In this document: positions 12,481 to 13,497 of the stretch, in pieces
How positions within the stretch are numbered: the stretch's first letter is position 1
How the letters are laid out: every line of letters starts with the position of its first letter
From: an uncultured Zetaproteobacteria bacterium
GTDB taxonomy: Bacteria > Pseudomonadota > Zetaproteobacteria > Mariprofundales > Mariprofundaceae
Assembly (NCBI GenBank): GCA_964407235.1
Contig: CAYOUW010000003.1
Location: 1 to 51,965, forward strand
Length of the DNA: 51,965 bases
Direction: 5' to 3'
Notes under the pieces: generated by a model
Told to the model about the DNA's origin: nothing
Seen by the model: only the letters and a program-made list of their open reading frames with translations
The model's database searches: none
Position numbers and translations under genes: made by a program

Positions 12481-13497
12481 ATGAATGAATTCCGCGCAGC
12501 ACGGATCGAATACAGTAATTATTATCGGATGATGTCCGATGATGTCCGTATGCAGGCGTTCCATATCGCGATCAAACGCATGATCAAACCCGGAGACATT
12601 GTGATGGACCTTGGCGCGGGTACCGGGATTCTGGGTATCTGGGCGCTACAGGCAGGCGCAGCAAAAGTTTATGCCATTGAGCAGACCGGAGCCATTGATT
12701 TGGCTCGCGAGATCGCTTGCGTCAACGGGTACGCGGACCGGATTGAGTTCATTCAGGATAATTCCATGAACGTATCTCTTCCGCGGCGAGCCGATGCCAT
12801 TATCTCGGAAACGCTCGGCAGCTTTGCGGTAGATGAGAATATGATCCCGTATATAACGGATGCCAGAGAACGGATGCTTGCGGACGGAGGCGTGCTCATC
12901 CCCGACGCCATCGAGCTATTTGTCGCCCCGGTCGAGAGCAAGGATATTTATGAAAAAATCGATTTCTGGCGTAAGTTTCCAGATATTAATTTCTCGTCGG
13001 CATTTGAACTTTTTTCGCGTAAAATGATGGTTGAATCCATCCTGTCCGGTCAGCTTCTGGCTGAACCGCTAAGGCTTCAATCTGTCAATCTGAATACGTG
13101 GAAGGAAGATTCCTATGCGGCTCGCGGCTATTTCCCAATCCGGCGGACGGGTATCATTCATGGCGTGGCTGGCTGGTTTACCGCGATATTATGTGATGGC
13201 GTGCGAATTGATACGGCACCGGATCAACCGGAAACACATTGGAAACAGGCCTTTTTTCCGTTTCACGATCCCATCCGGGTTGTGCAGGGGGATGTGCTGG
13301 ACTGGTCGGTTGAGGTAACCGGAGCGTCGTCCGGCAGCGATCATACGCATATTTCCTATCAATATCGCTGTACCCAGATACACGAAGAGATGCGAGAAAA
13401 AAGGATCGGCAGAAATGAACCCTGCCCCTGCGGAAGCGGGGTAAAGTTCAAAAAATGTTGTGGGCGTATGGGTGATGATTCATGCAACAATACTTGA
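12481..13497 (+). CDS. Protein arginine N-methyltransferase (PRMT)-like class I SAM methyltransferase with C-terminal SEC-C zinc motif
   Basis: Motif I [13 protein letters not shown]; post-I KVYAIE. Double-E loop [15 protein letters not shown] has the same E-x8-E spacing as PRMT1. THW loop [12 protein letters not shown]. C-terminus [17 protein letters not shown] is a SEC-C motif. Confidence 0.8.
   Translation: [338 protein letters not shown]

Follow-up and report, generated by a model that had tools for sequence, protein, structure and literature searches.

A stretch of 51,965 nucleotides (nt) from the forward strand of contig CAYOUW010000003.1, belonging to an uncultured Zetaproteobacteria bacterium and called the window throughout, carries at positions 12481-13497 a gene whose product combines the core of a protein arginine methyltransferase (PRMT) with a C-terminal SEC-C domain. 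We refer to this product as PRMT-SEC-C. The gene lies inside an operon for a respiratory molybdoenzyme, between a NapG-like and a NapH-like gene. PRMTs are usually treated as a hallmark of eukaryotic regulation. An earlier reading of the same DNA, made without database searches (the sequence-only reading), had proposed the fusion of the two domains, its membership of the operon and a functional link between the enzyme and the operon. Our analysis follows up these proposals.

A PRMT core with a SecA-type tail

The gene and its recognizable parts are the following.

12481..13497, + strand: PRMT-SEC-C gene, 338 amino acids (aa) (open reading frame (ORF) and translation, Pfam, PDB, Foldseek, and the ratio of nonsynonymous to synonymous substitution rates, dN/dS)
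12601..12627, + strand: motif I, the predicted glycine loop for binding of S-adenosylmethionine (SAM), residues 41-49 (aligned to PRMT6 VLDVGAGTG)
12805..12837, + strand: double-E loop, residues 109-119, E110-x8-E119 (gapless to PRMT6 SEWMGYGLLHE)
12913..13374, + strand: beta-barrel and oligomerisation subdomain, residues 145-298, with dimerisation-arm helices at 154-179 (Pfam PRMT_C and AlphaFold2 (AF2) model)
13231..13263, + strand: THW loop, residues 251-261 (aligned to PRMT6 ATHWKQALLYL)
13411..13467, + strand: SEC-C or SecA-like metal-binding domain (MBD), residues 311-329, putative ligands C315, C317, C326 and C327 (Pfam SEC-C)

All the motifs quoted in the sequence-only reading are present in this ORF on the + strand, and the profile searches matched models for both domains that it had named. 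The Pfam PRMT_C model covers residues 145-298 with an E-value of 1.6e-21 and is aligned from profile position 4 to 162 of 164 (159/164), while generic class I methyltransferase models of Pfam also match the protein. A phmmer search against all PDB sequences gave 93 matches, and all 93 of them are PRMTs. The top one is PRMT6 (E-value 3.7e-39, residues 12-297, ~29% identity), to which motif I, the post-I acidic motif YAIE, the double-E loop and THWKQ align without gaps, opposite VLDVGAGTG, YAVE, SEWMGYGLLHE and THWKQ, respectively. The match of the core is thus far beyond chance.

The residues expected for catalysis are also fixed within the family. We aligned 16 family members, and the same alignment served as the input of the AF2 model. 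In motif I, which reads VMDLGAGTG in the window, the residues V41, D43, G45, G47 and G49 are invariant, and so is the YAIE motif at residues 64-67. The double-E loop has S109, E110, T111, G113, S114, F115, D118 and E119 in 16/16 sequences, and the pattern ETLGSF[AG][IVL]DE was found in nearly all bacterial loci. T252, H253, W254, K255, Q256 and A257 of the THW loop are invariant as well, as is M17, the counterpart of Met48 in PRMT1. The double-E and THW residues are hence positioned as in PRMTs, as the sequence-only reading had them.

The AF2 model has a mean predicted local distance difference test (pLDDT) score of 83.6, and places helices at residues 154-164 and 172-179, followed by beta strands that form a barrel. 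Its top matches in Foldseek are exclusively type I PRMTs, i.e. PRMT6, PRMT3, PRMT2, CARM1 and Hmt1, with E-values of ~1e-32 to 1e-29 and template modelling scores of 0.72-0.75 over ~305 columns. The predicted structure thereby agrees with the fold that had been read from the letters. No hydrophobic or transmembrane segment was found in the 338-aa protein, and we therefore predict it to be cytoplasmic. Taken together, sequence and fold identify the product as a predicted SAM-dependent methyltransferase with the PRMT fold, soluble and cytoplasmic, with all catalytic signatures intact and type I PRMTs as its nearest relatives. Against three orthologues the gene has a dN/dS of 0.12-0.21, a sign of purifying selection; the other operon genes have 0.07-0.18.

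With the eukaryotic type I enzymes (PRMT6, PRMT1/Hmt1, PRMT3, PRMT2 and CARM1) the protein shares the Rossmann SAM domain, the beta-barrel with its dimerisation arm, and the motif I, post-I acid, E-x8-E double-E loop and THW loop. It differs from them in being bacterial and only 338 aa long, in having no N-terminal targeting domains, and in its C-terminal SEC-C. The double-E loop also differs, being SETLGSF here and SEWMGY there, so that the Leu presumably replaces the second specificity Met of PRMT1. An N-terminal alpha-X helix with the motif YFxxY is a type I feature of PRMT1 and PRMT3. This motif was not found at the N-terminus of the family, where the consensus is LAQxGYExYY; the PDB alignments begin at residues 11-15, and residues 1-13 have a pLDDT below 50. 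The missing YFxxY lowers the claim to a canonical type I enzyme but leaves the assignment to PRMTs, as judged by the remaining motifs, intact.

A short variable linker joins the PRMT core to the tail. Just before this linker, at the end of the beta-barrel, we observed an invariant Y-x-Y-R-C-[TS]-Q motif (window 13360-13380, residues 293-299), which contains a fifth conserved cysteine, C297. The tail itself matches the Pfam SEC-C model over residues 311-329 at all 19/19 profile positions (E-value 4.3e-10). Its CxCx8CC motif spans residues 315-327, and C315, C317, S319, C326 and C327 do not vary within the family. The tail shares 17/22 residues with the C-terminal peptide of SecA that was crystallised with SecB (1OZB), and it also matches the C-terminal MBD of YchJ. 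By its sequence, the tail is a SecA-type Cys4 metal-binding domain, and the fusion of PRMT core and SEC-C suggested by the sequence-only reading is borne out. As in SecA, the CxCx8CC motif has the same flanking residues and stands at the C-terminus after a flexible linker; it is carried here by a methyltransferase and in SecA by the translocase ATPase, and binding of metal (Zn or Fe), SecB or ribosomes by the present tail is predicted from this likeness. Other SEC-C proteins for comparison are YecA, the MBD-bearing methionine aminopeptidases and the cysteine-rich YchJ, for which a role as a transcription factor sensing reactive oxygen species has been assigned (PMC13377102).

We collected 762 relatives of PRMT-SEC-C as 90%-identity clusters at E-values up to 1e-5. 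The nearest ones are from Zetaproteobacteria of the Mariprofundaceae (68-83% identity), followed by Gammaproteobacteria (53-61%) and then by Planctomycetota, Verrucomicrobia and delta-type metagenome-assembled genomes. The full-length family collapses to ~5 clusters at 50% identity in an exhaustive profile search. The sequence-only reading had called PRMT homologues rare and essentially uncharacterised in bacteria; the number of clusters makes the first part an overstatement, and the second holds for the open-access literature, in which we found no characterised bacterial PRMT and nothing on the PRMT-SEC-C architecture or on a respiratory-operon context. Searches of the same literature for SEC-C methyltransferases and for arginine methylation of molybdoenzymes or substrates of twin-arginine translocation (Tat) gave indirect precedents only.

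Other bacterial PRMT-fold proteins make up the next layer of matches, which cover only the core and have 230-308 bits on the family profile. Two that we checked, P0400 and P0409, have C- or N-terminal PqqD domains, which are recognition elements (RREs) for ribosomally synthesised and post-translationally modified peptides (RiPPs), and this suggests that the PqqD-bearing proteins may be arginine-methylating RiPP tailoring enzymes. It fits the description of bacterial PRMT relatives in peptide-biosynthesis clusters as groups that are sister to PRMTs of eukaryotes (PMC3417536). These methylases of RiPP and non-ribosomal peptide synthetase (NRPS) clusters are the nearest bacterial relatives outside the family and have the same core with an appended module for substrate recruitment (PqqD/RRE). 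In contrast to their RRE and biosynthetic clusters, PRMT-SEC-C has SEC-C, a respiratory operon and no precursor peptide nearby.

NCBI records give many homologues (P0006, P0019, P0051, P0061 and others) the name '50S ribosomal protein L11 methyltransferase', and a local Pfam PrmA match is found over residues 30-114 of PRMT-SEC-C. PrmA, which methylates lysine in ribosomal protein L11, has a class I SAM-methyltransferase Rossmann domain in common with it. We rejected the identity with PrmA: the prmA equivalog TIGR00406 scores 33.9 bits against a cut-off of 183.15 and covers residues 32-113 only, and the fold and motifs of the whole protein are those of a PRMT. Judged by these profiles, the L11-methyltransferase (PrmA) name is a systematic misannotation.

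The operon and its molybdoenzyme

The genes around PRMT-SEC-C that belong to the operon or lie upstream of it are listed below; signal peptides, hydrophobic and transmembrane segments are predictions.

8369..9040, + strand: dihaem c-type cytochrome, the first operon gene, with a signal peptide for the general secretory (Sec) pathway (Pfam Cytochrome_CBB3 and Cytochrom_C, two domains)
9065..11779, + strand: Nap-like molybdopterin oxidoreductase, 904 aa, Tat signal VNRRNFIKGS (Pfam Molybdop_Fe4S4, Molybdopterin and Molydop_binding)
11851..12444, + strand: NapG-like ferredoxin 1, 197 aa from MNRRRF, Tat signal (NapG model 1.3e-38, below the cut-off)
13482..14462, + strand: NapH-like membrane polyferredoxin 1, 326 aa, ~5 hydrophobic segments (NapH/MauN model 1.8e-43, below the cut-off)
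14462..15043, + strand: conserved 193-aa protein with a signal peptide, one C-terminal transmembrane segment and an RRRR tail (cytoplasmic)
15046..16551, + strand: NapH-like membrane protein 2, ~501 aa, ~8 transmembrane segments, start at TTG 15040 or ATG 15046 (NapH 4.5e-09, weak)
16557..17162, + strand: NapG/NapF-like ferredoxin 2, 201 aa (NapG 2.2e-30, NapF 1.1e-18)
5752..8221, + strand: sensor kinase (dCache sensor, FixL-like core) and FixJ/NarL-class response regulator, directly upstream of the operon (Pfam)
2232..5662, + strand: MoaB/Mog-like protein, MoaA, ModA-like binding protein and MobB (Pfam MoCF_biosynth, Radical_SAM with Mob_synth_C, SBP_bac_11 and MobB)

On the + strand the genes run in the order sensor kinase, response regulator, cytochrome c, molybdoenzyme, NapG-like 1, PRMT, NapH-like 1, the 193-aa protein, NapH-like 2 and NapG/NapF-like 2. 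The PRMT gene is thus found between a napG-like and a napH-like gene, where the sequence-only reading had put it. 'NapG-like' and 'NapH-like' are the right labels because the scores are below the curated cut-offs. From the cytochrome onward the intergenic gaps of the eight-gene operon are 24, 71, 36, -16, -1, 2 and 5 nt. The PRMT gene starts 36 nt past the NapG-like stop, with an AGGA sequence 10 nt upstream of its start, and its stop codon at 13495-13497 lies beyond the NapH-like ATG at 13482, giving an overlap of 16 nt. The N-terminus of NapH-like 1 is conserved from residue 1 in loci L001 and L003. We found no convincing terminator inside the operon in a terminator scan, and a terminator-like hairpin at 17154-17171, after the last gene. 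From this layout the PRMT gene is very probably co-transcribed and translationally coupled with the redox operon, in agreement with the co-translation proposed earlier. We also considered a recent insertion of the gene and rejected it: its GC content is 0.507, and GC content, GC content at third codon positions (GC3) and codon usage are all inside the range of the other operon genes.

The 904-aa enzyme appears to be related to NapA, the periplasmic nitrate reductase. It carries the Tat motif RRNFIK and the Fe4S4 cysteine motif CPYCGVGCG, and the context of its molybdenum ligand, NARMCMTSAV, aligns to NARHCMASAV in E. coli NapA, where FdhF has ARLCHAPTV; it has the Cys-Met context and not the selenocysteine/Cys-His one of formate dehydrogenases. 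Against the NapA equivalogs it scores 331 bits with a cut-off of 904 (NF010055) and 309 bits with a cut-off of 930 (TIGR01706), and its alignment to E. coli NapA is limited to residues 56-589 and 763-904. On these alignments the enzyme is Nap-like and not a bona fide NapA. The operons of Gammaproteobacteria are flanked by NarL (292 bits, cut-off 250) and a NarX/NarQ-like kinase. In the deep lineage of locus L051 (6996-9182 and 9626-10621), the PRMT gene is followed by a cd1 (NirS-type) nitrite reductase, MoaA and then a second cytochrome/molybdoenzyme pair, a denitrification-like arrangement. A role as periplasmic nitrate reductase is likely for the enzyme, because of the Nap-type active-site context, the NarX/NarL neighbours and the cd1 nitrite reductase in one deep lineage. 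The enzyme family is large and very conserved: its members in Gammaproteobacteria, those of Thiohalobacter, Photobacterium and Sulfuriflexus among them, show 72-77% identity.

The dihaem cytochrome heads every operon copy that we examined. The 193-aa protein has no match in Pfam, NCBIfam or PDB by sequence and profile searches; it is present in every full operon copy, always just ahead of the large NapH-like gene. NapG/NapF-like 2 begins with MDRRDFFRRGAVSLKN, which has an RR motif but no hydrophobic h-region or transmembrane segment, and is thus probably cytoplasmic like NapF. The ORFs listed for both NapG-like genes are probably over-extended: the one from TTG 11686 overlaps the molybdoenzyme gene, and the one from ATG 16059 begins inside the second NapH-like gene. 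Their true starts are likely those at the conserved Tat/RR motifs, at 11851 and 16557. Opposite the molybdoenzyme and NapH-like genes there are long antisense ORFs, e.g. one of 425 aa at 9995-11272 (minus strand); most likely they are shadow ORFs that mirror the GC3-rich coding strand.

Upstream, the response regulator scores 225 bits with the NCBIfam FixJ model (cut-off 255), and the kinase/regulator pair is syntenic in L001-L003. Before this pair lies a cluster for molybdenum cofactor and molybdate (window 1913-5662), which is opened by a ModE-like helix-turn-helix fragment. By its gene content, all of 1.9-17.2 kb has the look of a single molybdoenzyme island. Downstream, at 17275-27414, there are housekeeping genes, namely a DinG-like helicase, prfC on the minus strand, and trigger factor, ClpP, ClpX and Lon.

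Linkage of the gene to the operon

We scanned metagenome contigs with the family alignment and obtained 61 loci. Linkage was called by tblastn of the operon proteins of the window against all loci, with deduplication at 90% PRMT identity. The counts by PRMT clade are as follows.

At least 53% identity to the window (crown): 16 clusters linked; 1 informative unlinked (Thiohalobacter sp. IOR34); 10 clusters with short flanks
42-52% identity: 0 linked; 9 informative unlinked; short flanks not counted
37% identity (deep branch L051/L052): 1 linked; 0 unlinked; 0 with short flanks

At least three of the 10 short-flank crown clusters share upstream genes with a linked locus. In the complete genome of Thiohalobacter sp. 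IOR34 (CP128988.1) the PRMT gene is unlinked, and the same operon is found 580 kb away.

The linked loci fall into five arrangements. (a) In Zetaproteobacteria the PRMT gene is inside the operon; the whole cluster is syntenic in three zetaproteobacterial genomes with PRMT in the same slot. (b) PRMT is the first gene, immediately upstream of the cytochrome gene. (c) PRMT lies 3-4.5 kb upstream, with a NarX/NarL pair of divergent transcription in between. (d) PRMT is convergent at the 3' end of the operon. (e) In the deep branch PRMT directly follows the NapH2-like gene; here the PRMT has 37% identity and the molybdoenzyme ~50%, and the PRMT is without SEC-C. The gene is therefore kept with the operon in related as well as distant genomes despite the shuffling of gene order, as would be expected from the functional link that the sequence-only reading had drawn.

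Arrangement (c) raises the possibility that the methyltransferase is regulatory and acts on the two-component regulator (NarL/FixJ-type) or the kinase of the operon, for which the arginine methylation of PhoP at R112 in Salmonella (PMC8546571) is a precedent. In these loci PRMT lies tail-to-tail ~50 nt from the gene of the NarL protein described above, and the unlinked PRMT of Thiohalobacter is likewise convergent with a kinase/regulator pair. We consider this explanation improbable. The zetaproteobacterial PRMT stands among the structural genes, 4 kb from the regulator, the PRMTs of L017/L013 and L051/L052 have no flanking two-component genes, a SEC-C tail would have no obvious use in targeting a folded cytoplasmic regulator, and two-component systems are frequent chance neighbours.

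When the comparison is made from the side of the operon, the picture changes. Six operon copies were picked via their molybdoenzyme, from Thiohalobacter, Photobacterium, Sulfuriflexus and three long contigs. The co-occurrence of PRMT-SEC-C genes with molybdoenzyme operons, which the sequence-only reading had named as a check, holds in one direction, with crown PRMTs beside the operon in 16/17 informative clusters, and not in the other, since 0/6 of the operon-selected copies carry a PRMT in the fetched locus. We observed a strong association that amounts to a one-way dependence: the crown-clade PRMT is tied to the operon, and the operon is not tied to the PRMT. Because these six copies have no adjacent PRMT, the enzyme is an accessory factor rather than an obligatory one. 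NapF, NapL and NapE are variably present accessory genes of nap operons, and we liken the PRMT to them in this respect.

The same six copies have no NapD-like gene in the fetched locus either. This speaks against the suggestion of the sequence-only reading that the PRMT fills the niche of a missing NapD, the chaperone that binds the Tat signal peptide of NapA (PMC4159696). The PRMT protein matches none of the NapD or TorD/DmsD/NarJ families in Pfam and NCBIfam. It resembles NapD and NapF in being a predicted cytoplasmic, operon-encoded accessory factor for an enzyme before its export; it has no kinship to them in sequence or fold, and the operon has its own NapF-like gene at 16557-17162. A related explanation is that the protein is not a PRMT in practice, and serves either as an idle PRMT-fold chaperone holding a Tat or Sec pre-protein in place of NapD or as a methylase of small peptides or metabolites. 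No NapD/TorD-type gene fits any gap of the cluster, bacterial relatives of the PRMT fold work in pathways for peptide natural products, and the YFxxY helix is neither conserved nor modelled with confidence, all of which would fit this explanation. We regard it as very improbable, however, given that all the SAM- and arginine-binding residues are invariant in the family and under purifying selection, that operon copies with neither NapD nor PRMT exist, and that neither a small precursor-peptide ORF nor an RRE domain was found here.

Other genes recur near PRMT or the operon. In the gamma clade an acidic ORF of ~130 aa (23 D/E versus 7 K/R, with an invariant PFG-R) lies directly upstream of PRMT-SEC-C and sometimes overlaps it, e.g. 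in L006 (7546-7992), L020 (8149-8541), L075 (8987-9388) and 23 other gamma-clade loci. It has no homologue in the window or in the zetaproteobacterial loci. We considered it as a SecB-like chaperone and dropped this idea: it belongs to no Pfam family, its 196 homologues are all 'hypothetical', and no Foldseek match was found with an E-value below 0.1, with one of five AF2 models being confident. A DsbH-like thioredoxin protein of 780-860 aa (Thioredox_DsbH and DsbD_N) recurs beside the operon with or without a nearby PRMT, as in L075 (6555-8933), L017 (3301-5874) and L078 (6550-8904), and in some loci the genes form the string DsbH-like, 133-aa, Sel1-repeat and PRMT.

We lean towards the reading that PRMT-SEC-C is a system-specific accessory PRMT, which would be docked by its SEC-C tail at the ribosome or at SecB and would methylate an unfolded subunit of the operon before export. 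Several points weigh against this reading. Many loci of arrangement (c) come from related samples and their molybdoenzymes are 84-97% identical, which reduces the 16 linked clusters to ~5 independent juxtapositions. All nine informative loci at 42-52% PRMT identity are unlinked. None of the six molybdoenzyme-selected operon copies has the gene in the fetched locus, and the system evidently functions with no PRMT beside it. The tightest partner of the gamma-clade PRMT is the acidic 130-aa ORF, in a transcription unit separate from the operon. The SEC-C domain is equally well compatible with a general ribosome-associated role. The methyltransferase activity of PRMT-SEC-C is predicted from sequence and fold.

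These points lead to another explanation, i.e. that the enzyme is a general housekeeping PRMT, for example one docked at the ribosome or SecB, that modifies ribosomal, translation or Sec-pathway proteins or many pre-proteins, and that its proximity to the operon comes from co-regulation or inherited synteny. The family does reach unlinked clades and phyla (L073 and L074 are among the nine unlinked loci), the Thiohalobacter gene is unlinked, the operon is often found without an adjacent PRMT, and SEC-C domains are ribosome- or SecB-binding modules. A Mantel test between PRMT and molybdoenzyme distances gave r = 0.90 (p = 2e-4), which is expected of any two co-inherited genes; we had considered it as a sign of specific co-evolution and dropped it for this reason. 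We nevertheless hold a housekeeping role to be rather unlikely. Five distinct juxtapositions with the same operon are seen across 37% to 83% PRMT identity, and for a single-copy 9-kb operon in a 3-Mb genome the chance of a random gene falling within 10 kb is roughly estimated at ~1%. In Zetaproteobacteria the gene appears translationally coupled inside the operon. Apart from antisense shadow ORFs and the upstream genes of the gamma clade, no other neighbour recurs in the unlinked clades.

A possible role in maturation of the respiratory enzyme

In the system-specific reading, the substrate would be one or more arginines on one of the operon's own subunits, modified in the cytoplasm. The exported subunits, i.e. 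the cytochrome with its Sec signal and the molybdoenzyme and NapG-like protein with their Tat signals, could be reached by a cytoplasmic enzyme only before export. The SEC-C tail may dock the enzyme at the ribosome exit site or at SecB, by analogy with SecA and the methionine aminopeptidases, and the PRMT core may favour an unfolded peptide, like other PRMTs and its RiPP-type bacterial relatives. Methylation would then hit the nascent or unfolded pre-protein before cofactor insertion, Tat or Sec export or membrane assembly, and could tune assembly, stability or redox properties in the way suggested by NDUFAF7. We propose the docking because SecB and ribosomes are bound by the MBD of SecA, a domain that also occurs fused to methionine aminopeptidases, enzymes working on nascent chains (bioRxiv 10.1101/613315), and because peptide-recruitment domains are found on the sister PRMT-fold proteins.

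NDUFAF7 dimethylates Arg85 of NDUFS2, next to the Fe-S cluster N2, during the assembly of complex I (PMC3829151, PMC8042128). Its likeness to our proposal is that of a dedicated arginine methyltransferase working as an early assembly factor of a respiratory Fe-S enzyme. The comparison is an analogy only, as NDUFAF7 is a mitochondrial protein from an unrelated methyltransferase family (MidA, not of the PRMT fold) and its substrate has been defined by experiment. The eukaryotic PRMTs act on RNA-binding and chromatin proteins, whereas PRMT-SEC-C is encoded in a respiratory operon.

Invariant arginines are present in several operon subunits: in each haem domain of the cytochrome, in a GR ahead of the presumed axial Met, in LRPPGA of the NapG-like ferredoxins and in RRGFCRYLCP of the NapH-like protein. 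Among the invariant positions are R84 and R184 of the cytochrome, R43 and R35 of the NapG-like proteins, R120, R221 and R225 of the NapH-like protein, and R207, R439, R566 and R567 of the molybdoenzyme. The Fe-S and CX3CP regions of the NapH-like protein would face the cytoplasm, going by the topology of E. coli NapH. We speculate that the methylation sites may be among the cytochrome GR motifs, the NapG-like LRPPGA, the NapH-like RRGFCRYLCP and a twin-arginine signal, though such a choice is doubtful at present. The Tat signals of the molybdoenzyme and the NapG-like proteins are canonical and indistinguishable between operons linked and not linked to PRMT, and for this reason we do not single out the twin-arginine motif as the substrate. 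The further proposal that arginine methylation is a dedicated maturation step of a periplasmic respiratory enzyme, carried out on the nascent pre-protein by a PRMT tethered through a SecA tail, is likewise put forward tentatively.

The fold family and the tail domain are known; what appears to be undescribed is their fusion, the compact bacterial family that has it, and the conserved way in which this family is tied to an operon for a respiratory molybdoenzyme. There is also a practical point, as the family is currently mislabelled as ribosomal protein L11 methyltransferases. The family bears on the bacterial ancestry of the eukaryotic PRMTs. Its catalytic residues are intact, its tail points to docking at the ribosome or SecB and its tie to a single respiratory operon is conserved, so that the function of arginine methylation in bacteria can be studied here in a concrete system; Thiohalobacter sp. 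IOR34 has both the PRMT and the operon in one complete genome, and the candidate substrate proteins are few. If the maturation reading is true, a bacterial PRMT would have a defined physiological role for the first time, and methylarginine would be placed for the first time on a redox protein that bacteria export. If the link to the operon is real, it would add a post-translational layer to the maturation of Tat- or Sec-exported redox enzymes that take part in nitrogen cycling at hydrothermal vents and in sediments.

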